Shown piece by piece: positions 42,718-54,977 of a DNA stretch of 64,000 nt. The translations under genes and the position numbers were made by a program. The notes below the pieces were generated by a model that saw only the letters and a program-made list of their open reading frames with translations, made no database searches and was not told where the DNA came from. Numbering within the stretch: the stretch's first letter is position 1; each line of letters opens with the position of its first letter. Origin of the DNA: Candidatus Brocadiia bacterium (GTDB lineage Bacteria; Planctomycetota; Brocadiia; SM23-32); contig JBKHIT010000008.1 of NCBI GenBank assembly GCA_046538485.1, positions 42,857 to 106,856 of the forward strand, in the 5' to 3' direction.

Positions 42718-42787
42718 GCAAAGGAAGTTAGTGTTTGTGGAAAACGACAGCATTCCTGTGCGAAAGACGGAAGCAAAAGGATTTCCG

Positions 42788-45061
42788 ATGGAAGAACTGG
42801 CCAAAATTCGTTGCAACAATACCTCAAATCGCAATCTGACTGGATATGGCGTCACCTATGGCGTCCCACTTCCTCAGGGACGCCTTCAGGAACCCCAAAA
42901 CGCTGCCCTCGCCATAAAACTCCCCGAGGGCTCCATTGCTCCAATTCAGTGGAAAATCGCCGAGAAATGGCCTGACGGGTCGGTCAGGTGGATCGTGCTC
43001 GACTTTGAGATGGATCTGCCGGCCAACAAACAATCCAGTTTTGCCCTGGTGGCCGACGCCGAAACTCCCGACTATCCCAAACTGGAGATACACGAAAATA
43101 ATGCCAGTATCTCCGTCGCCAACAAACACCTGCGGGTTGAGGTTGAACGGAACTCTTTCTCCCTCTTCGAATCACTGTCGGTCAATGGGCAGGAATTGAT
43201 TCAGCAGGGGGCCGATATCATCGTGGTCAACCCAAAAGGCAAACGCTATTACGCCAGTTTTACGCAAAATCTGGATGTCTCCATAGTCGAACAAGGACCC
43301 GAACGGGTCGTTATTGAAAGCTCTGGGCGCCATACTGCCAGCGATGGCGATCAGCTGCTTTCTTTTCGTCTTCGCTACACCATAAGGCCCCATGACCCGT
43401 GCATTCGCCTCTCCTATAAGATGGCCAATGAAGAAGAACCGGAGATGGGCGTTCACCTTGGCCGAATTTTCATGGAAATTCCTACGACACTCGGCCCCCG
43501 TCCAACACGATACGTCCGCCAAAAACACCACACCGAACTCTGGTTCACCCGGCCGGTCGAAATTCAGGAGAACGTTGAACTACAGGCCGGGAGTTTCATA
43601 AGCGAAATGGCCGAATCAGTCTATGGAAAAGCGCATTCGGGCAAGGTGGTCATACGCAACCTCCATAATTTTCGCGAAGACCTCAGCGATTATCCCCACT
43701 ACCTGCGGCCTGGAAACGCCCGTTCCGATATGAGCGGCGGTTTGCGCGCGGCATATCCTTTCCTGGCAACGGTTTCAGAAAATGGTTCTTTCATCGGCTG
43801 GTTTTCCGAAATGGAGGCAAACCATCCCAAAGGGGTCGCTTCGGAACGCAATAAGATTCGTTTCGACATCTGGCCGCAATGGGCTGACAACCTCCGCCTC
43901 AACAGAGGGATGTCCAAAGAGCATGATATCTTCCTCTCGTTCGATGACCGGCGCCTATCCTTCGAAGATCTTGAATCTCGCTATTTCGATCACGAAGTGA
44001 TGGGATTCGGCATCTTTGCCGAAGGAGCCCCCCCGGTGAATTTCTCCATCGATCCCGAATACGCCCGTGAGTGTGAAGTTTTCGATATTCATCGCTGGTT
44101 GCCTTACGACGAAGACCGGTACCTGAAAATCGAGACCAAAATGGGTACCATCGGCTCAAAAGGCGGCAAAATGTCACGTGGGATGCTCGATTATGGCGAC
44201 GGCATCATTCGGGACTGCAGCGCGAATAATGAAAACGATAGGATTCTTGACCGGTTCCGGGAATACTACCGCCGCGGCAAAGCGGAGTTCCGCCGGGAAG
44301 CTCTGATCTCTGCCCGTCACAACGCACATGTCGATTTGATTTCTTATGATCCGGATGAGCTCCGACAGGGCACGATGGCTGCACATTGTCCCAACCATAG
44401 CGACGGGGCGTGTTACCCCTCTCACATGTGGGTTGGCGGACTGCTGGCGGCGTTCTGCACCACCGGTGAGCCGGATTTCGAAGAAGCCGCCATCTCCGTC
44501 GGCGAAAACATGCTCCGCTGGCAGGAAAAATGTCCTGAAGTCTTTTACTGCGACAGTCGGGAGGCCGGTTGGCCGATGCTGGCCTGGGTACAGCTCTGGC
44601 ATCATAACCACGAACAGCGCTGGCTGGATGCCGCGGACCGTGTCTTCCAGTTCTACGCTGAGAAAGTGGATGAAGAGGGGAAAATAGTCTATGAAATTCC
44701 GCACAAACTCGGGACTTTCCTGCAGGGTTACGGAGAGTTTATCGCGTGGCGGGGTTGTTTCCACTATTACGAAGCGAGCGGAAAAGAAGAGGTGAAAGAT
44801 TTCCTCGTCGATGTCCTGAGTAAAGAAAATATCTACAAAATCACTCCGGCCAGAGTTGAAAAAGGTGGTTGGGCCTGCAATGACCTGTTCCCGGCCTGGG
44901 CTGTCTGGCAGCTGACCGGAGATGATAAGTTTCTCAAAGACAATTTCCCCTTCCTGGAATACATGATGGACAGAGAAGGAACTTTCCCATGGACCGGCGT
45001 CGATGTCATGTATTACCTGAATGCCCTTCACGAACGCGGGGAACTCGAAGAATTCTGCTGA
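42788..45061 (+). CDS. Putative exo-rhamnogalacturonan lyase-like (YetA/PcRGLX-like) protein
   Basis: VTYGVPLPQG, WPDGSVRW, GMLDYGD, NNEND, ARHNAHVD, SHMWVGG and REAGW suggest an (alpha/alpha) toroid with N-terminal beta domains. Confidence 0.6.
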   Translation: MEELAKIRCNNTSNRNLTGYGVTYGVPLPQGRLQEPQNAALAIKLPEGSIAPIQWKIAEKWPDGSVRWIVLDFEMDLPANKQSSFALVADAETPDYPKLEIHENNASISVANKHLRVEVERNSFSLFESLSVNGQELIQQGADIIVVNPKGKRYYASFTQNLDVSIVEQGPERVVIESSGRHTASDGDQLLSFRLRYTIRPHDPCIRLSYKMANEEEPEMGVHLGRIFMEIPTTLGPRPTRYVRQKHHTELWFTRPVEIQENVELQAGSFISEMAESVYGKAHSGKVVIRNLHNFREDLSDYPHYLRPGNARSDMSGGLRAAYPFLATVSENGSFIGWFSEMEANHPKGVASERNKIRFDIWPQWADNLRLNRGMSKEHDIFLSFDDRRLSFEDLESRYFDHEVMGFGIFAEGAPPVNFSIDPEYARECEVFDIHRWLPYDEDRYLKIETKMGTIGSKGGKMSRGMLDYGDGIIRDCSANNENDRILDRFREYYRRGKAEFRREALISARHNAHVDLISYDPDELRQGTMAAHCPNHSDGACYPSHMWVGGLLAAFCTTGEPDFEEAAISVGENMLRWQEKCPEVFYCDSREAGWPMLAWVQLWHHNHEQRWLDAADRVFQFYAEKVDEEGKIVYEIPHKLGTFLQGYGEFIAWRGCFHYYEASGKEEVKDFLVDVLSKENIYKITPARVEKGGWACNDLFPAWAVWQLTGDDKFLKDNFPFLEYMMDREGTFPWTGVDVMYYLNALHERGELEEFC

Positions 45062-45431: not shown

Positions 45432-45705
45432 GACCACTCAGGTCTGGGTTATGGAGAAGCACAACATGTTGCGGGCTGAAGGCCCGCCTCAATTTGCTGT
45501 TGTTTGGAAAGCGCGTTTCTTTATCAAACCTCAGGATAGTTGTCGCAGACCGCTTAGACTCGCCCGGGTCTTTCGACCCGGTTCATAGCGGGGATCGGGT
45601 GTGTCACATGCGCCTTTCGGAGGATACTGAGAAGGACAGTTCAGACGGCGTATAGAAACGCCGGTAGAGTTCCCGTAGTTCGTTTTGCAGGAGATTTCAT
45701 CACAA

Positions 45706-46842
45706 ATGACGGAAAAGAATGCTGATTTGCCTGATCCACGAAAAGTGGCGCAGCAAGAGGCAGAACAAATCAAGAACGATTACGAATTCATTTTTGAAAA
45801 GAGTCTGAAACGGGCCATTGCCGACCGTCCATCGCTCGACCGAGAGCGTTTGTTCCGGGAACTGGTGGAGTTTCATCGGGAACGGATGAACAAAATCCCG
45901 CCCCGAGCGAAATACCCCGAGGCGGCTCCGTGGGTCGGGTACGTCATTGAACGTGACCGCGAGTTGCAGCGAATCTCGGGACTTTCCGACCGGGAAATGG
46001 CCCAGCTGCGGAGTCTCAATGACTACCTCCGGTTCAGGGGTTGGGGCAATCTTTGCCCTGTCAGCTCTGAAAAATGCCGGGTCGTTTATCTGCCCGACTC
46101 GGATCGGGGGGAATTTCATATAAAGAATGTCGATGACCCCCTCACGAACTGGGAACCGTCAGACGAGCCGCCCCCCTCACCCCGTTTTCCGGAACTCATG
46201 ATGGATGGGGTGGGCGCGGGGCTTCATCTGGATGACGAGCCAGAGCAGATTTTTCCGCTTCCGATCCGGCAGATGTGCTCAAAACTCGCCGAAAATCTGC
46301 CGTCGGCCCTTGAGTTTCTACAACGATACTCACCGTTCTGGGGCGCGCAAAATCTGCTGCTGCACGACCGCCAGAAATGCAGCATCGCCATCGAAAAGAC
46401 AAGCTATAATTTCATGGACGTTTATGAACCCGGCACATCCGGTGAGAGCCATATCAGCGGGATGGTCTGCCGGGAACCCAAAACCGAGCAAGGACGATAC
46501 GTCGAACGAAAACGCAAAGAGTTCACCGAACGGATCGGACAGGATGAAGAGGGGCCCTGCGGAAAATTCTGGCAGGCGTGCGACCGCGCGGAACAAATGC
46601 TGGCGGAATTGCTGTCGAAGGTAGATGTCACCATCGATGAAATACTGGAGCTTTTCACCACGACCTGGCCGGAAGGACTCAACAAAGCCGGCGCGGTTTT
46701 TCATCCGGATCAGCCCTACGCCTCATGGACACTGGTCACACACGCCCGGTTGCCGGATCAAGGAATGGTTTTACGCTGGCAGCGCAGCGCCGATGGCGCG
46801 TATCCCGATAAACCGCAAGTGTTTGAATACCCGATGGGATAA
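45706..46842 (+). CDS. Hypothetical protein, possible C45/Ntn-hydrolase-like
   Basis: Long ORF with typical composition; EKCRVVYL...HIKNVDD resembles the C45 autoprocessing region (C...N.D). Confidence 0.55.
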   Translation: MTEKNADLPDPRKVAQQEAEQIKNDYEFIFEKSLKRAIADRPSLDRERLFRELVEFHRERMNKIPPRAKYPEAAPWVGYVIERDRELQRISGLSDREMAQLRSLNDYLRFRGWGNLCPVSSEKCRVVYLPDSDRGEFHIKNVDDPLTNWEPSDEPPPSPRFPELMMDGVGAGLHLDDEPEQIFPLPIRQMCSKLAENLPSALEFLQRYSPFWGAQNLLLHDRQKCSIAIEKTSYNFMDVYEPGTSGESHISGMVCREPKTEQGRYVERKRKEFTERIGQDEEGPCGKFWQACDRAEQMLAELLSKVDVTIDEILELFTTTWPEGLNKAGAVFHPDQPYASWTLVTHARLPDQGMVLRWQRSADGAYPDKPQVFEYPMG

Positions 46843-47184: not shown

Positions 47185-50100
47185 TTACGGCTGAACTTCG
47201 ATCTCCACGGGCTGGGTCGCATCGCGGACCTCCGGCTCGTAGTACTGATAGACTTCCGTCGGAGGCGTCTTGGCCTTAACGGGGTATTTGGCCCGCAGGT
47301 GATACGTGAACCGTACGGGTTCGTTGCCGACAATGCTCTCGAAATACAGGATCACCTGTCGACCGGTCAGGGAATATCGCTGAATCAAGCCCTGCTCTTT
47401 CAGGCGGTCAAAATCCTCCGTCATGACCTGAAAGCCCGGCGGAATGCCCAGATCAACAATTGTCATGCGGGCCACACCGCTCCGGTTGTAGCGGATCGTC
47501 GCCTCGCACGCTAATTTGTCGTCCGGACGCAACTTCGTGGTATCGTACGCTACATCGATGCTCATGGTCTTCTGGGTGGTCGGGGTTTTTCTCTCCCAGG
47601 GGAGGTAATGGGTGGCGACGATCTGGTAGGCAAAATTCGCTTCCCCGGCCGGTTCCAGAGATATCCGGTTGGGTCCGGGTTTCTGGTGTTCGCGCAGGCT
47701 GATCAGCCGGAAAACATCGCTGGTCTCCGGCGTGATGGTCAGTTCTCTGGCGAATTTTCCGTTGACCGAGATCGTGATCGGGAGGTCTTGTTTCAGTTCG
47801 GTTGCGGGCCCGGTGCCAGCAAGGAGGGCGCGCATCGCGTGTACAGTAGCCTGGGTGGAATGCCACGTGCCGGCTGAATCTTTCTCCTCGATGAGCCAGG
47901 CCAGAGCTCTGTGCGCCGTGCCGAGATGAGATTGAGCTTTCAACATCGCGTATGCGGCCAGGGCCGTGGTTTCAATGTTCAGGACATTGCCCCGGGAGTG
48001 GGTCACACCCTCCGATTTGGAACTCCAGTGCGCAAGGTCTCCGTCCTCCTTTTTCGTGGCGTCAAGCATCTTAATTAAATCCCCGGCGCCGGATCGCTCG
48101 CCCGCGACGAGCGCATTGGCGCAGACGGCAAGCGTGTAAGCGTCTTCGTCGCTCGATACGTTCTGTTCGACGTAGTCGAGGGCACGTGAAAGGTTGGAGT
48201 CTACGTTTCCCGACTCCGCCAGAGCCCATGCGATGTAGGCGGTTGTTCGGAGGACGGCGCCCTGGTAGGCGTTGATGGCACCTTCCTGGATGCCCCCCTG
48301 GGTCGGTTCCCATGAGCCATTGCGTTTTTGCTGCGAGAACAACCACCGGCGCGTTCGCTGTATGACGGCGGGATCGACCTCATAAACTTTCGCCATGTCG
48401 TTGAATTCCATCAGACCGTACGCTGTCAGAACGCTGTGGGCGGGCGCGTTTCCGAACCATTCGAATCCGCCCCCGCTGACTTCGTAGGAGAGCAGACGCT
48501 GGTAACCGAGGTTGATGTAATTGAGCGCTTTCATCTCGATTTCGGGCCTGGATTGATCCGTGCGGCGCATGTAGTCGAGCGCCAGAATGTTGGGGTATGT
48601 CACTGAAGACGTCTGTTCGAAACAGCCAAACGGTTTGCGGAAGATGCTGTCCAGTCCTTCCATCACCTGGCTGAAGGCGCCGGGATAGATTTTCACCAGC
48701 AGGTCGGAGGCGCCATCGATGGCCCGATCGGGAATCACGACCGTGCGGTTCAGTTTGCCGGTGAGGCGCCCGTTATCCGTCTGGACGATCTCTTTGCCGT
48801 CGGGTCGGACGCGGACCTTACGCCGGATCGCGTCGGCCATCTCGGATCCGAAAGCGCGAACGGTGAGGGTGTGGCGGCCGGGTTTGAGCGCGCGCAGTTT
48901 CATCGGGATACTCGTAACTTCCCGGGGACCGATTTCGAGCCGGCGTTCGGTCTCCCCGAGCATCTCGCACCAATCCGCATCGTCGACTTCCAGCCGGATC
49001 AGCTGGGTTTCGTCGAGATAGTTGTAGAGGGCGATCGGGACGCTGATTTCGTCGTGTTGGGTGAGGGCGACCGGGAAATCAATATCCACAAAGAAATCCT
49101 GAAACACCCGCAGCCCGAAGGTCTCCGCGCCCAATCTTCCCTGTCTCGAGACCGCGCTCATACTGATCCGCCAGGTGGTGATGGAATCGGCGAGCGGGAC
49201 TTCCAGTTGAGCCCGGCCGGCCTCATCGGTAATAAGTTCCGGTTTCCAGAGAAGTGTTTCCGGGAAATAGTGTCGGACGCGGCTGGGGGCTTTCAAACTT
49301 TCATCTGCAGCCTTTTTGCGCCCCTTTGCGGCTCCGCGAACAGGGCTTCCATCAAGCGCTTCAGTCATCTCCGCAAACTTCTGGCGTGCGGCCATCCGGG
49401 CGGGAGACAGTGCCGGGAGGAGCAACCCGGCGAAGACGAGGAGCGCGAGAACGGGCAAGGCACCGCTGCGAACGGCTATCCAGACCGCGCGTTTTGTTGA
49501 AAGTTTCTGGCAGACAGAGTGTCCCGCAATTGACAGCGCGGGCAGCGCCGCAAACCAGAGACCGATCATAATCCCCGCTTCCAGCACAATTGTTTCTTCC
49601 GCCAGGCCCAACTCAGCTTCGGCGATTGCAAGGGTTAGGATCGATACGCTGGCTGCAATATAGGCGAAAGGCAAAAGCGTGGCGAATTTACGGAAAAGCG
49701 GCAGGTTGCTGACTCCGGGGCCCTTCCGGAATTTGAAAACCTTGGCTATGAGGGCTATCAACATGCCGATCCAGGCAATCACCCCAAAACTACCGCTAAA
49801 AAGTTCGCCGTGGTAGCGCGCAAAAGCATTCTCGATAATTAGTTCATCAATAAGCAATCCCACGATGAGTGCTGTGACGGGAATAACCAGTGCCAACAAC
49901 CAGCTTGCTGTCAGCCACCAGCATGCCCGTCGGAGTCGGTTCATCTCTTTTGCATTTAGCTCCGGCACCGGACGTCGTCTGAACAGTTTGTAAAGGCCGT
50001 AACCGACCATGGGCAGCACAAACAAGACATACAGTGCAAACGGGACCTGTGCGGCCAGTTTCAGGACAGCCCTGCGGTAGTTCACTTTCACTTTTCGAAA

Positions 50101-52362
50101 TCGTCTCTGTTTTTCCTCAAATGAAATGCTCTGCGCTTTCCTCGGTGTGGCCGTTCCCTCGGCGGCGGAGAACAGCGCAACCCGGGCTTCTTTCAGTTGT
50201 GGTTCCGATTCCCCACGCGGCTCAATGGCCTCTTCAGCCGTCAGCGGCATATGGCCGTGAATCTCATAGGAAGGTTTGAGTATCTCTTCCTGAAGCGTGA
50301 AATAGACCCGTTCGAGTCCCGGGCGCATTTCCTGGAGAGCGAACACGGCCTCGTCCACTCCGGCCAGGCCCAGCGCCGCCTGTGTTGGTTTTCCTTCGGT
50401 CCCGGTTACCATGAACGTCAAGGTTGCGTTTTCCCCCGGACGGTACGTTTTTTTGTCCATTTTGGTCTCGATCGAGATCTGATCGGGTCGGTTGACCTGG
50501 ACCACTTTTGCGTCGCTCACGATATTACCGTCGGGCAGGATGCGATACGCGTGGAGTTCGAGTGTTCCGAACAGGTCGGGCGGTAGATCGAGTGCAACGG
50601 ATCCGCGCCCTTTCTCGATATCAAGGGCTTTGCTTAACATCGTCCGGCTGTTTTTCACGACATCCACGAAAACCCGGGCCCGTCGGTCGCCGGAGAGGAC
50701 GGATACCTCAGCCGTTTCCCCCGCTTTATAAACGGCTTTGTCAGTGCGGAGGAGAAAAGCGTGGACCCGCTGATCGACGCGGAGAGGTCGGCTGACTTTC
50801 ACCCGGCGCCCTCCGTTGTCTTCGGCTTCGATCGTGAGTTTCATGCGGGGGGACCGGGGGGTGATTTTGACTTTGGCGAGTCCATTCTCCGCGGTGCGTG
50901 TTCTGCGGCGATCAGCACCGATGATCAGTTCGGTCTGTGCCGGTCGGCCGTCGGGATATGACGTCACGATGTAGAGGATGTTTTCGACGCCCTGGACGAG
51001 TCTGCCGCTTTCCGGGAGCACGGCCACGCGTATCGGGCGGGTTGTGACGGTCAGTTCTTCAGTAATTTCCTGGGTATGACCGGCGGTATCGGTCACTTTA
51101 GCTTTGAGAGAAACCGTGGCATCTCCCTTTTTGCGGGCGGTGCCGGTGAAATGGCGTTTCAGAGGAAGCTGGAACGAAAAATGCCCTTCAGCGTTGGTTT
51201 TGCCCTCGGCACTGGCGAACTGACGGAACTTTTCCACAAACTCCGAGGCTGTGATCTGCACCTCCGCGTTCCGAACGGGTTTCCCGAATGTGTAGCGAGC
51301 GGTTATTTCGCCGATGAGCATTTCGCCGGGCCGGTAGAACGTTTTTCCGCAGCTTATGGTGGCCTTGAACTTCGGCAAACGATAACGTTTGACCGTCACC
51401 GTGCGTTCCGATGTGGTGTCGCCGACATGGGCGGAGATGGTGTAGCGACCGGTGTTGACCTGATCGGCGAGCTGGAAATCGGCGGCCGCGATCCCGTATT
51501 GGGAGGTTTTCAGCGTCTTTTTAAAGACCTTGTTGCCTTTAGCGTCTTTGACTTCGATCGTTGCCGGCTGGTCGGCGACGGGGTGGAGGTCGCTGGTGAA
51601 AAGCGACAGGGTCCGCATATGAATCGTCTGCCCGGGCTGGTAGAGCGGTTTATCGCTGCTGATCATTACCCGGAAAGACCGTTCGATGGTGATGGTGCGG
51701 GAGACGACGTTTTTCCCCGCGGCTGATTTTGCGCGCACCCGGAGGGTATAATCGCCTTCCGATAGGTCCTCGGCCAGTTCTGGCTCAACCCGGGCGTTGC
51801 CGTGTTTGTCCGTTTTTGTTGTGCCTTCCCATATCTGTTTCCCACCGGGGTCCACCAGTGCGGCGGATACTTTCGCGTTAGGGACGGGTTTTGATTTTTT
51901 GCCGTCACGCACGAAAAGCCGAAACGACGCGATCTGTCCCGGTGTGACCGCCCAGCGTCCGTAGACCATAGTTTCCTGTGGTTTCGCGTGACGCGTGGCG
52001 ATGTGGCGGTCGATTCCGAGTAAGCCGATGGTTATCAGCGCGATGGCGGCGGCGGCGATTTTCCAGAACCGTTTGCTTCCCAGCCAATCTGCCTTCGGTT
52101 CGACGGGTTCAGAAGCCATGGTTTGACCCTCCATTCCTTTCTTTTGCGTCTGCGCCGCTTTTATGGTCCTTTCGGCCAGATCTTCGGGAGGAGGAGGTGC
52201 ATCCCATTCCCGCAGAGCTTCCTTCTGGCGGCGTATCTTGTCCCGTGCCTGCCGGCATTCGCGGCAGATTTGCAGGTGTTTTTCTACCTGCTCTCTTTCA
52301 TCTCCATCGAGCAGATCGAAGACCAGGTCATAGAGTTTTTGCTGGACTTCTTCGCACTTCAT
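47185..52362 (-). CDS. Zinc-finger anti-sigma domain fused to a thioester-containing alpha-2-macroglobulin with a multi-TM insert
   Basis: HLQICREC and TM; MG repeats (SDKPLYQPGQ, YRLPKF, TDKAVYKAGE, DKKTYRPGE); VDEAVFAL; about 6 TMs; VRHYFPETLLW; ADSITTW; PFGCFEQTSS; GGFEWFG; STQATV; YQYYEPE. Confidence 0.9.
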   Translation of the reverse strand: MKCEEVQQKLYDLVFDLLDGDEREQVEKHLQICRECRQARDKIRRQKEALREWDAPPPPEDLAERTIKAAQTQKKGMEGQTMASEPVEPKADWLGSKRFWKIAAAAIALITIGLLGIDRHIATRHAKPQETMVYGRWAVTPGQIASFRLFVRDGKKSKPVPNAKVSAALVDPGGKQIWEGTTKTDKHGNARVEPELAEDLSEGDYTLRVRAKSAAGKNVVSRTITIERSFRVMISSDKPLYQPGQTIHMRTLSLFTSDLHPVADQPATIEVKDAKGNKVFKKTLKTSQYGIAAADFQLADQVNTGRYTISAHVGDTTSERTVTVKRYRLPKFKATISCGKTFYRPGEMLIGEITARYTFGKPVRNAEVQITASEFVEKFRQFASAEGKTNAEGHFSFQLPLKRHFTGTARKKGDATVSLKAKVTDTAGHTQEITEELTVTTRPIRVAVLPESGRLVQGVENILYIVTSYPDGRPAQTELIIGADRRRTRTAENGLAKVKITPRSPRMKLTIEAEDNGGRRVKVSRPLRVDQRVHAFLLRTDKAVYKAGETAEVSVLSGDRRARVFVDVVKNSRTMLSKALDIEKGRGSVALDLPPDLFGTLELHAYRILPDGNIVSDAKVVQVNRPDQISIETKMDKKTYRPGENATLTFMVTGTEGKPTQAALGLAGVDEAVFALQEMRPGLERVYFTLQEEILKPSYEIHGHMPLTAEEAIEPRGESEPQLKEARVALFSAAEGTATPRKAQSISFEEKQRRFRKVKVNYRRAVLKLAAQVPFALYVLFVLPMVGYGLYKLFRRRPVPELNAKEMNRLRRACWWLTASWLLALVIPVTALIVGLLIDELIIENAFARYHGELFSGSFGVIAWIGMLIALIAKVFKFRKGPGVSNLPLFRKFATLLPFAYIAASVSILTLAIAEAELGLAEETIVLEAGIMIGLWFAALPALSIAGHSVCQKLSTKRAVWIAVRSGALPVLALLVFAGLLLPALSPARMAARQKFAEMTEALDGSPVRGAAKGRKKAADESLKAPSRVRHYFPETLLWKPELITDEAGRAQLEVPLADSITTWRISMSAVSRQGRLGAETFGLRVFQDFFVDIDFPVALTQHDEISVPIALYNYLDETQLIRLEVDDADWCEMLGETERRLEIGPREVTSIPMKLRALKPGRHTLTVRAFGSEMADAIRRKVRVRPDGKEIVQTDNGRLTGKLNRTVVIPDRAIDGASDLLVKIYPGAFSQVMEGLDSIFRKPFGCFEQTSSVTYPNILALDYMRRTDQSRPEIEMKALNYINLGYQRLLSYEVSGGGFEWFGNAPAHSVLTAYGLMEFNDMAKVYEVDPAVIQRTRRWLFSQQKRNGSWEPTQGGIQEGAINAYQGAVLRTTAYIAWALAESGNVDSNLSRALDYVEQNVSSDEDAYTLAVCANALVAGERSGAGDLIKMLDATKKEDGDLAHWSSKSEGVTHSRGNVLNIETTALAAYAMLKAQSHLGTAHRALAWLIEEKDSAGTWHSTQATVHAMRALLAGTGPATELKQDLPITISVNGKFARELTITPETSDVFRLISLREHQKPGPNRISLEPAGEANFAYQIVATHYLPWERKTPTTQKTMSIDVAYDTTKLRPDDKLACEATIRYNRSGVARMTIVDLGIPPGFQVMTEDFDRLKEQGLIQRYSLTGRQVILYFESIVGNEPVRFTYHLRAKYPVKAKTPPTEVYQYYEPEVRDATQPVEIEVQP

Positions 52363-52378
52363 ATATTTTCACTTTCGG

Positions 52379-52996
52379 TTACTGGTTTTGAGAGACGTCA
52401 TGAGCTTCGGCGATATCTTCCAGCTGTTTGCGGAGTTTCTGAAGGGCCAACCGCATTCTGGATTTGACGGTTCCCGGAGGTATCTGAACAGTATCGGCAA
52501 TTTCGGCGTAGGTCATCTCGTGGTAAATCTTGAGGATGAATACCTCTTTCTGTTCGGCGGGGAGTTCGCTGACGGCCTCCTCAATTCGTTCCCCAATTTC
52601 CTGGCACTCTATTCGGTGCGGAGGTGAGGGGTCAGATGAGCGGGGTTCCGGAGAACCGTTGAGCGGACGTGAATCTCTGCTTCCTTTTTTGCGCCAGTGC
52701 GAGCGACAGAGGTTCGTCGCGATTGTGTAGAGCCAGGTTTTGAACGAACTGTTTCCCCGGAAAGATTCGGCCTTCTGGAAGACCCGCATAAACGTTTCCT
52801 GAAAAAGATCCGCCGCGACGGTGCGGTTTCCCGTCAGTTTGTAGAGCAGACCATGGAGTGGTTTTTCATACCGCCTTACCATCGTCTCAAACATGGTCAT
52901 ATCGCCCTCTATAAAGCCAAAAAGAAGGTCTTTGTCGCTTAACTCCGTACGATCCCCGCGATAAGAGCGACTCTGCGGTGCGGGGGTCGATTCCAT
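52379..52996 (-). CDS. ECF-type RNA polymerase sigma factor
   Basis: Region 2 DLFQETF and FKTWLYTIATN; region 4 LPAEQKEVF, MTYAEIA and GTVKSRMRLA; AGGAG SD. Confidence 0.95.
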   Translation of the reverse strand: MESTPAPQSRSYRGDRTELSDKDLLFGFIEGDMTMFETMVRRYEKPLHGLLYKLTGNRTVAADLFQETFMRVFQKAESFRGNSSFKTWLYTIATNLCRSHWRKKGSRDSRPLNGSPEPRSSDPSPPHRIECQEIGERIEEAVSELPAEQKEVFILKIYHEMTYAEIADTVQIPPGTVKSRMRLALQKLRKQLEDIAEAHDVSQNQ

Positions 52997-53015: not shown

Positions 53016-53044
53016 TAGACGCATGGGCGTCCCGAATTGATCAC
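53016..53044 (-). promoter_or_regulatory. Candidate autoregulatory ECF promoter
   Basis: Minus strand GTGATC-N17-CGTCTA, 20 nt upstream of the sigma ATG. Confidence 0.35.
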
Positions 53045-53600: not shown

Positions 53601-54977
53601 TCAGACCGCGGGAACTGCCTCGTCGGCGGCTTCGGCAAGCACTGCCAGGCTCTCCTGCAATGCATCTTCTGTGATGCAGAGAGGGGGCGCTATTTTGACG
53701 CACTCGCCTCCGACACCGACCGGTGCGAACATGAGAAGACCTTTCTGGAAACACTTCTCGTTGATTTTGAGTGCCAGCTCGGAGTTCGGGGTTTTCGAGC
53801 CCGGTTCCACCATCTGGAGTCCCGCGACCAGCCCCCGTGCCTGAATGCACCCGACGTGATCCGGATGCCGCGTCTGGATTTCTTCGAGTCCTTTTCGAAG
53901 GATCGGTCCGAGTGTGGCGGCATTTTCGATGAGGTTCTCATCTTCCAGCGCTTCAATTCCTGCCAGAGCAGCGGCACAACAGACGGGATTGCCGGAGTGA
54001 GTTGAGGTCATTGACCCCGGCGCGTACTGGTCCATGAGTTCAGCGGTCCCAAGAACGGCGGAGACCGGAAGAGAACTCGATACGCCTTTTCCGCAGCAGA
54101 TCAGATCCGGCACGATATCGTAGTGCTCGAAACAAAACATCTTGCCCGTCCTGCCAAAACCGCTCTGCACTTCGTCCATGATGAGCACGGCTTCATGCTG
54201 ATCGCACCACTCTCGAAGAGATTGCGCATAGGGCGCGGGTAGAAAATCGGGGCCCACGCCCTGGTAACTCTCCGTCATGACGCCGGCCACATCGTCCGGA
54301 TCGACGCCCTGTTCCGCCAGAGATTCTTCGAAAAGCTCGAAATGCCTATCCTCGGTCTTGAATCCATCGGGAAAGGGTACCTGGACAAATCCGACGTCGG
54401 TGCGCACGATCCAATCTTTAAGTTTTTCCATCCCGCCGGCGAGCTGCGCGCCGAGAGTTCGACCGTGGAACGCGTTTTCAAAAGTGACAATGACATGTTT
54501 CTGTTCTCCGGCCATCCGAACGCCATGGGTACGGGCGAGTTTGATGGCACATTCGGTGGCCTCGCTGCCTGTGGACAGGATAAAAGCTTTTTCGATCGCC
54601 TCGGGAGCCATATCCACAAGTTTCTCGGCCAGGTCGGCCCGGGTTTCATGGGGAAATACATAGGTGGCGAGCAAAGGTCTGTCGTTCAAATCGCGGATAG
54701 CTTTCTGGATGCGTGGGTGGCCGTGGCCGGCGTTGCTTACCAGAACGCAGCTCGACCAGTCGATCCAGCGGTTGCCCCAGCGATCTTCCACATTGAAACC
54801 TTCGGCCCGATGCCAGATTATCGGCGGCTGCCCCTGCATGGATCGTGGTTCGACGCGCCGCAGTTTTTCCAGAATCGGGACGGATTCCGGCACGGGCAAA
54901 GGCGTTTGGATCCGTCGATATTCGGTGTCAATTTCAGGGACATCAACCGGTTCGAGACTGTATTTTCCACCGCTCAT
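53601..54977 (-). CDS. Class III PLP-dependent aminotransferase
   Basis: NAGHGHP, STGSEATE, AFHGRT, DEVQSGFGRTG, CGKG and STHSGNP. Confidence 0.93.
   Translation of the reverse strand: MSGGKYSLEPVDVPEIDTEYRRIQTPLPVPESVPILEKLRRVEPRSMQGQPPIIWHRAEGFNVEDRWGNRWIDWSSCVLVSNAGHGHPRIQKAIRDLNDRPLLATYVFPHETRADLAEKLVDMAPEAIEKAFILSTGSEATECAIKLARTHGVRMAGEQKHVIVTFENAFHGRTLGAQLAGGMEKLKDWIVRTDVGFVQVPFPDGFKTEDRHFELFEESLAEQGVDPDDVAGVMTESYQGVGPDFLPAPYAQSLREWCDQHEAVLIMDEVQSGFGRTGKMFCFEHYDIVPDLICCGKGVSSSLPVSAVLGTAELMDQYAPGSMTSTHSGNPVCCAAALAGIEALEDENLIENAATLGPILRKGLEEIQTRHPDHVGCIQARGLVAGLQMVEPGSKTPNSELALKINEKCFQKGLLMFAPVGVGGECVKIAPPLCITEDALQESLAVLAEAADEAVPAV

Follow-up and report, generated by a model that had tools for sequence, protein, structure and literature searches.

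The window analysed here, a 64,000-nucleotide stretch of Candidatus Brocadiia DNA, carries at 47185..52362 on the minus strand a single open frame of 1725 amino acids with no internal stops (P0001; all features below lie on this strand unless marked otherwise). Judged from its sequence, the product is a thioester-type alpha-2-macroglobulin (A2M) fused to an N-terminal anti-sigma domain, and its two A2M halves are separated by a six-helix membrane module (aa 771-986, 49405..50052; delimited by hydropathy, family alignment and an AlphaFold2 (AF2) model). This bundle is probably not the bait itself but a conserved membrane module that was inserted immediately N-terminal of a bait still present, for which we infer the linker directly after it. 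Immediately upstream lies the gene for an extracytoplasmic function (ECF) sigma factor. The anti-sigma domain and the upstream sigma gene set the biological context of the A2M; neither figured in the initial annotation of this DNA, which had described about six transmembrane (TM) helices standing where the bait region of the A2M should be.

By Pfam, the domains of the protein follow in the order zf-HC2, MG2 (5.1e-40, best stretch aa 232-319), MG3 (aa 327-401), A2M_BRD (6.5e-14, aa 538-676), A2M (2.2e-20, aa 1036-1125), TED (8.9e-49, aa 1229-1513) and A2M_recep (6.9e-16, aa 1631-1713), and the domain set of the A2M/thioester superfamily -- MG array, bait-region domain, A2M, TED and a C-terminal receptor-binding-type domain -- is complete. 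The CXEQ thioester motif of TED is present as GCFEQ at aa 1246-1250 (C1247; 48613..48624, by sequence motif). The cytoplasmic N-terminus spans aa 1-98 and holds the anti-sigma domain at aa 3-37 (52252..52356), recognised by PF13490 (zf-HC2; 34.4 bits against a cutoff of 22.2) and by a motif scan (H29-x3-C33-x2-C36); NCBIfam NF052375 (anti-sigma factor) also matches the N-terminus at 7.7e-12, below its cutoff. It is followed by a signal-anchor helix, TM0 (aa 99-117, 52012..52068; Kyte-Doolittle score 2.07, helix 97-122 in the AF2 model), and by the periplasmic MG domains through A2M_BRD (aa 129-676, 50335..51978), assigned by Pfam and seen as beta-sandwich repeats in the AF2 model. A soluble lead-in (aa 677-770, 50053..50334), defined by the family alignment and aligned by complement C5 with its post-MG6 segment, has a conserved RPGLERVYFxLQEEILKP and a conserved PELEEAxVVLFSAAEG with variable residues 703-722 between them, and then a helix that continues into TM1. 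Beyond the six-helix module come a hypervariable, disordered periplasmic linker, the candidate bait (aa 987-1020, 49303..49404; family alignment, per-residue model confidence (pLDDT) and alignment with A2ML1), a conserved LKAPxRVRxY lead-in to FPETLLW (aa 1021-1032, 49267..49302) in which P1026, R1028 and R1030 are invariant, and the C-terminal half of the A2M (47224..49266; A2M at 1033-1125, TED at 1229-1513 and the receptor-binding-type domain at 1631-1713, all by Pfam).

A Kyte-Doolittle scan of the whole protein (19-residue window, threshold 1.6) gave one N-terminal peak (aa 99-117) and six within aa 765-985, with scores of 2.0-2.5, and none elsewhere. The six helices are TM1 771-793, TM2 816-839, TM3 855-875, TM4 895-916, TM5 925-947 and TM6 967-986, with cytoplasmic loops at 794-815, 876-894 and 948-966 and periplasmic loops at 840-854 and 917-924, an orientation that was derived from hydropathy and the positive-inside rule. 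The three cytoplasmic loops carry 7, 5 and 4 Lys/Arg and the two periplasmic loops 1 and 0; the family medians for Lys plus Arg are 5/5/4 in cytoplasmic loops 1/2/3 and 1/0 in periplasmic loops 1/2, while those for Asp plus Glu are 3/0/0 and 1/2. The six hydrophobic segments and the basic loops after TM1, TM3 and TM5 that had been picked out in the initial annotation are thus all there, in a module that falls inside the interval it gave (49390..50070), and its view that the helix number is even and that both A2M halves lie outside holds up, since the charge pattern puts the loops after TM1, TM3 and TM5 in the cytoplasm. Only one of the 114 residues in the six 19-residue TM cores is charged, which excludes the soluble bundle that was the alternative to membrane helices.

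Conservation within the module is uneven. The helices themselves are weakly conserved (18-42% identity) and no charged or polar position in them is invariant or nearly so; the conserved residues sit in the cytoplasmic loops, of which loops 2 and 3 are 19 aa long in all aligned rows. Near-invariant residues of the insert are P774 and Y788 (TM1), R796 and P798 (loop 1), R891 (loop 2) and P898; P888, in cytoplasmic loop 2, is invariant, and the motifs LFRRxP, PLLRK and RxxSxxRWxWLxxSR recur. In an AF2 model of aa 680-1030, made with 27 sequences, block-mean pLDDT is 86-97 over the helical region, except for one loop block at 67. No family in Pfam or NCBIfam matched the module, Foldseek found no match to the insert model in the PDB at E <= 0.001, and an ESM Atlas search with the insert returned no usable match. 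A VIA-align comparison with about 48,000 chains reached Z 8.3 at best (124 aligned residues, 3.8 Å), which is within the background for helical bundles; its top matches (an oligosaccharyltransferase subunit, cytochrome b561, four-helix sensor domains) reflect generic bundle similarity. The bundle is a conserved membrane domain without a recognised family or fold among those searched. An internal repeat of three hairpins was also considered, and was rejected (best hhalign probability 0.9%, E 0.029).

The place of the insert is fixed by its borders. VDEAVFAL (aa 669-676) is the end of Pfam A2M_BRD, and RVRHYFPETLLW (aa 1028-1039) is at the start of Pfam A2M. HMMER aligns VDEAVFAL with residues 600-607 of human A2M (6tav_A, a 1474-residue chain) and PSRVRHYFPETLLW (aa 1026 onward) with 728 onward, so that about 120 residues of human A2M correspond to about 350 here between VDEAVFAL and PSRVRHYFPE. 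The human bait, which we take to occupy precursor residues 690-728, would end exactly where this alignment resumes. C5 aligns its post-MG6 segment with RPGLERVYFTLQE and the start of its alpha chain with RVRHYFPE. The two alignments together place the insert where A2M has its bait and C3 and C5 have the ANA domain, as had been proposed.

The further proposal that the bundle stands in the bait's stead is not supported. The linker at aa 987-1020, directly after TM6, shows 14% mean identity and ranges from 23 to 84 aa across the family, and no other stretch but the short TM2-TM3 loop is as poorly conserved; pLDDT is below 50 for aa 980-1021 in the AF2 model of aa 1-1200, i.e. this part is predicted to be disordered; and HMMER aligns aa 1007-1032, from the C-terminal half of the linker onward, with A2ML1 from residue 685, immediately before FPETWLW. 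Variable, disordered and adjacent to FPETLLW, the linker suggests that a bait-like element is still present on the periplasmic side. The cytoplasmic loops of the bundle, being fixed in length and conserved, are unlike a bait.

The following topology, from N- to C-terminus, would fit these data. The anti-sigma domain must meet its sigma factor in the cytoplasm, which means that TM0 places MG1-MG6 in the periplasm; the chain would therefore run from the cytoplasmic anti-sigma domain through TM0 to the periplasmic MG1-MG6/BRD, pass into the six-helix bundle (N-out, C-out), and continue through a variable linker of about 35 aa into the A2M domain (MG6/MG7 region), TED and the C-terminal domain, all of them presumably periplasmic. 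In that arrangement the bundle would hold the candidate bait, as well as the counterpart of the C3 alpha'-N-terminus, against the outer side of the inner membrane. A complex prediction of aa 1-125 (anti-sigma domain plus TM0) with the bundle (aa 745-1000) scored 0.00 and counts neither way.

The ECF sigma factor gene (52379..52996; 205 aa; Pfam Sigma70_r2 4.2e-21 and Sigma70_r4_2 8.5e-17, NCBIfam TIGR02937 3.6e-34) is on the same strand, its stop 16 nt before the A2M start, and a two-gene operon is the best explanation of this arrangement. An ECF sigma gene lies directly upstream, in the same orientation, in 21 of the 25 related six-TM loci tested (the others being L017, L036, L041 and L042, the last with only 360 nt of upstream sequence), as against 0/8 loci, among the open reading frames (ORFs) tested, in relatives of the same clade that have no six-TM module. 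Nineteen nucleotides before the sigma start codon there is an ECF-type promoter-like motif, TGATCA-N16-CGTCTA (53016..53043), and the layout (T)GATCC/AAATCC-N16-(C/G)GTCTA is also found upstream of the sigma gene in L018, L022, L025 and L032; a motif shared in this way with four related loci is what one would expect of an ECF operon that regulates itself. A de novo search for two-block motifs in front of 22 sigma genes reached a top count of 6 loci, against 3-5 in shuffled sequences, and yielded only sub-clade motifs; one of these, TGTCACAC-N-GACAAG, lies upstream in L020, L021, L023, L028 and L035. No conserved downstream partner gene was found across the loci, the next genes being mostly convergent; same-strand downstream neighbours either have no Pfam match or are a second ECF sigma gene, which lies 3' of the A2M gene on the same strand in two loci of the sub-clade with the TGTCACAC motif (L020:6096-6731, L021:6221-6865).

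A family search with aa 680-1030 as the query returned 26 homologues of 966-1862 aa, 27-94% identical over the insert and, where the organism is named, from metagenome bins of Planctomycetota, Phycisphaerae and Verrucomicrobia. On the question, raised earlier, of whether the insert is conserved or variable, their alignment is clear, as the six-TM module is present in 26/26, and GCFEQT(S/T)S and FPE..W are found in all 27 proteins (P0001 included). At a Kyte-Doolittle score of at least 1.6 the insert has six peaks in 19 of the 27 proteins, five in 7 and eight in 1; all six aligned segments are hydrophobic in 27/27 rows (best 19-mer at least 1.34). The protein with eight, P0018, has an extra helical hairpin in cytoplasmic loop 1 (aa ~790-880), and the count is still even. 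When aa 750-1000 were run by phmmer against 1.84 billion representative proteins, there were 12 matches, all within long A2M-like proteins or fragments of them. P0028 (382 aa) was considered as a stand-alone bundle and rejected; it looks like a fragment whose start lies within the lead-in and whose sequence is degenerate after TM6. In a sample of the window's phylum the module occurs in 8 of 400 other genomes, with one match each, and scans of contigs from genomes and metagenomes gave six peaks in 21 of the 36 loci examined, most of the rest being cut by contig ends or of a kind with a soluble insert. A search with the N-terminal 240 aa found five proteins, all with hydrophobic segments at the insert position, which are too few to assess co-occurrence in the reverse direction. 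A tree from 520 residues on the C-terminal side of the insert sets all 45 six-TM rows (SH-aLRT 90) apart from the 4 soluble-insert rows (100), a clean separation that fits a single origin, in which case the sigma association may count as one event.

We give about an even chance to the reading that the protein is a protease-sensing anti-sigma factor with a complete thioester-type A2M as its periplasmic sensor, the sensing and the coupling both being steps that we infer. In such a scheme the operon would encode an ECF sigma factor and its membrane anti-sigma factor. A protease reaching the inner membrane would cut the linker at aa 987-1020, whereupon the thioester half would rearrange and trap the protease, as other A2Ms do, and the spent A2M would let go of the sigma factor. 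Release might come about in either of two ways: the change could be relayed through TM0 and the six-helix assembly, or the new chain end beside TM6 could tag the N-terminal fragment as a target of membrane proteolysis. Once free, the sigma factor would re-induce its autoregulated operon, replacing the single-use trap, and possibly switch on other genes too. The conserved, fixed-length cytoplasmic face of the bundle suggests a role beyond that of a second anchor, perhaps in relay or docking; the inward relay of a conformational change that the initial annotation had put forward may thus still apply.

Several observations weigh against this reading. A cut in the linker alone leaves the anti-sigma domain tied in through TM0 and MG1-6, and the coupling step is hypothetical. 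The HxxxCxxC zinc motif is present in 13 of the 27 family proteins, the others with a helical N-terminus lacking it. Some members (P0003, P0017, P0024 (TM0 at aa 20-26), P0037/L034 and P0039) apparently have no anti-sigma domain at all, though start codons may have been mis-called, and these keep the module together with its conserved cytoplasmic loops, so the role of the module cannot hang wholly on that domain. The pairing in L034, without an anti-sigma domain, fits equally well with a sigma factor that controls the A2M and with an A2M that controls the sigma factor. Finally, TGATC[AC]-N16-[CG]GTCTA has 3 strict matches in the source genome where about 2.5 are expected by chance from the size of the motif (0 in a reversed-sequence control), and with matches at chance level no regulon can be defined. 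In L034 itself the sigma factor (L034:2384-3292) has a C-terminal extension with a weak SnoaL_2 match (E 9e-4), and the A2M (L034:3198-8303) has almost no cytoplasmic N-terminus, TM0 lying at about aa 59 of the stop-to-stop frame. One of the strict motif matches (G000:C12:2361) stands 60 nt before a 1038-aa ORF (L050:150-3263; frame open further upstream) with a borderline match to the metallopeptidase family Reprolysin_4, 21.9 bits against a cutoff of 22; the chance level of the motif applies to it as well.

Another possibility, which deserves to be taken seriously even if we think it doubtful, is that the A2M is an effector and not a sensor: a membrane-anchored trap guarding the inner membrane, whose helices serve as a second anchor that holds both fragments after cleavage, while the sigma/anti-sigma pair responds, through regulated proteolysis of the ordinary kind, to a different envelope signal and sets the amount of trap. 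This is the role proposed for the A2Ms of E. coli and Salmonella, as guards of the inner membrane, and the bacterial A2Ms described in PMC5764988 are indeed kept there, either a lipid anchor or MagB holding them. The members that dispense with the anti-sigma domain and still retain the module speak for it too, as do the lack of conserved polar residues seen within the helices and L034, whose A2M without an anti-sigma domain is paired with a sigma gene that looks self-regulated. For anchoring, however, one extra helix or a lipid anchor would suffice, and six helices with fixed loop lengths and near-invariant cytoplasmic Arg and Pro residues suggest more than tethering; the co-occurrence of module and sigma gene noted above also argues against this reading, though it may go back to a single evolutionary event.

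It is improbable, though conceivable, that the bundle has an activity or sensing function of its own -- such as that of a channel or transporter-like module, or of a detector of damage to the membrane or its lipids -- and that the A2M halves gate it or report on it. Its compact, conserved and confidently predicted structure would suit such a role, as would the distant L017 protein of Victivallales, which keeps the MG half and the six helices without TED. Its restriction to A2Ms and their fragments, with just the dozen representative matches already mentioned, has been counted on the same side; it is found nowhere else. On the other hand, there is neither a fold match above the helical-bundle background nor a Pfam or NCBIfam family, and it is the cytoplasmic loops that are conserved, not any charged or polar positions in the poorly conserved helices.

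Very unlikely, in our view, is the mechanism first put forward for this protein, in which it is the bait that passes through the membrane, and a cut there or in the cytoplasm that acts as the trigger. The chain does make six membrane crossings at the bait position, and anti-sigma factors usually have site-2-type intramembrane proteases as partners. Baits, however, are variable and exposed, whereas the cytoplasmic loops here are short (19-22 aa), fixed in length and conserved. A cut within the membrane or on its inner side fits poorly, since both of the variable, disordered segments (703-722 and 987-1020) lie on the periplasmic side; nor could a periplasmic thioester trap capture a cytoplasmic protease. 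An artefact of chimeric assembly, or of a frameshift that joined two genes, to which the lower GC of the insert (0.53, against 0.56-0.60 in adjoining 500-nt windows) might have pointed, can be dismissed, because all 26 homologues and 21 six-peak loci from other assemblies share this architecture within what is here a single stop-free frame, contigs of a run from an independent study (X3, 90-99% alike) span the two junctions with no joint, and the lower GC would be expected from the codons for hydrophobic residues.

Among known systems, two types of bacterial A2M are described in PMC5764988: type I, a lipoprotein with CXEQ that is encoded with PBP1c, and type II (MagD), which is without CXEQ and is held at the membrane by MagB. 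P0001, with CXEQ and with neither a lipoprotein start nor a PBP1c neighbour, appears from its sequence to fit neither of them fully. Like the type I proteins of E. coli (ECAM/YfhM) and Salmonella (Sa-A2M), it would be a monomer-type trap attached to the inner membrane on the periplasmic side, with a bait and CXEQ; in ECAM and Sa-A2M, according to PMC5764988, the two fragments stay together after cleavage. It differs from them in having a 98-aa cytoplasmic N-terminus followed by a TM helix in place of a lipobox, an upstream ECF sigma gene and downstream convergent ORFs without a Pfam match in place of the PBP1c operon, and six additional helices ahead of the bait. Its sequence is far closer to animal A2ML1, CD109, A2M and C3 (E 1e-68 to 1e-49) than to ECAM and Sa-A2M (~1e-7 to 3e-8). 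With MagD/MagB of Pseudomonas aeruginosa, as characterised in that source, it has in common an A2M held at the inner membrane by a transmembrane element and a regulated access to the bait; MagD, however, has no CXEQ, a separate single-span anchor and a six-gene operon, whereas here there are CXEQ, two genes and an element within the chain at the bait position.

The animal members of the superfamily offer other comparisons. C3, C4 and C5 (with ANA) and human A2M and A2ML1 (with the bait) likewise have a helical module or a bait directly before xRxYFPE(T/S)WLW, and in both complement and A2M it is the cut at the ANA or bait site that triggers rearrangement. ANA, however, is a small soluble bundle that is released, while the 216-aa membrane bundle of P0001 cannot leave and the cut would fall C-terminal to it. 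CD109, among the best sequence matches (E 8.9e-67), is a membrane-tethered member of the family as well; its anchor is a C-terminal lipid (glycosylphosphatidylinositol), and it has neither internal membrane passes nor a link to a transcription factor. In its N-terminal sigma-binding domain, single TM, periplasmic sensor and adjoining ECF sigma gene, P0001 resembles the single-pass class I anti-sigma factors RseA, RsiW and RsiV. For RsiV and RseA, an external event that produces a cut near the membrane is the signal. In the literature searched, no known anti-sigma factor uses an A2M for sensing or returns into the membrane six times. Neither an A2M as an anti-sigma sensor nor membrane helices at a bait were found in PubMed Central full text (8.1 million papers) and 0.36 million preprints; subscription-only papers and the supplements of ECF classifications lie outside that scope, so a mention in a table of domain architectures is possible.

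Returning to the protease-sensing anti-sigma factor, we would suggest, tentatively and as a reading of doubtful probability, that it works as a bacterial protease-activated transmembrane receptor, its 1 + 6 helices passing bait cleavage across the membrane and so releasing the ECF sigma factor. The animal protease-activated receptors are a functional analogy only: they too would match 1 + 6 = 7 helices and a protease-cut extracellular segment as the proposed trigger, but there is no homology (the G-protein-coupled receptor rows of Foldseek have E > 0.2 and TM-scores < 0.2), and the output here would be release of a sigma factor, not G-protein signalling. If correct, this would be the first signal transducer of the A2M/complement family in prokaryotes and a new route to anti-sigma inactivation, in which each consumed trap calls for its own replacement and for a wider defence programme. 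The A2M and complement proteins known to date are traps, either soluble or tethered by a lipid, and the known anti-sigma factors are sensors with a single membrane pass; the present family combines the two and makes the trap cross the membrane at the point where it is triggered. Should bait cleavage indeed control the sigma factor, bacteria would have a means of converting foreign protease activity in the periplasm directly into transcription, built from the module that serves animals in innate immunity, and also a natural re-programmable switch, in that a changed bait would let a different protease turn on the promoter.

Related A2Ms carry other material at the same point. In sister A2Ms of Gemmataceae and other Planctomycetota the YFxLQEELLKP and FPETLLW borders are kept, and a soluble insert of about 350 aa replaces the bundle (L012:7022-8078, and at the same position in L013-L016 and L047-L049). 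It contains DAWGxxIKLVKR...SAGPDGKFGTxDD, which is reminiscent of the type II secretion pseudopilins, and its C-terminal end is Gly/Met/Pro-rich and of low complexity; the L012 insert, the sole one scanned, has no Pfam match. Locus L046 of this sister group has no large insert. The bait position thus seems to be an insertion hot spot in this A2M clade. The Victivallales protein mentioned above (L017:5060-7999, on a chromosome) has 979 aa with TM0, MG2, MG3, A2M_BRD and six hydrophobic segments, and stops after the sixth, with no A2M domain, TED or thioester; it looks like a half A2M with a six-helix membrane tail, and the next gene encodes a T2SSE-type ATPase.

The other neighbours of the operon in the window look unrelated to it: a PcRGLX-like protein (42731..45061, plus strand), a class III aminotransferase (53601..54977, minus strand) and a 385-aa ORF without a Pfam match (45685..46842, plus strand), which is convergent on the A2M gene. 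Elsewhere in the source genome (G000) there are three other large A2M-like frames (C43:74176-76923, C80:4943-7486 and C40:6330-9773, in open frames of 2156, 1812 and 2693 aa), 22-29% identical to P0001 in pieces, which appear to be paralogues of other A2M kinds.

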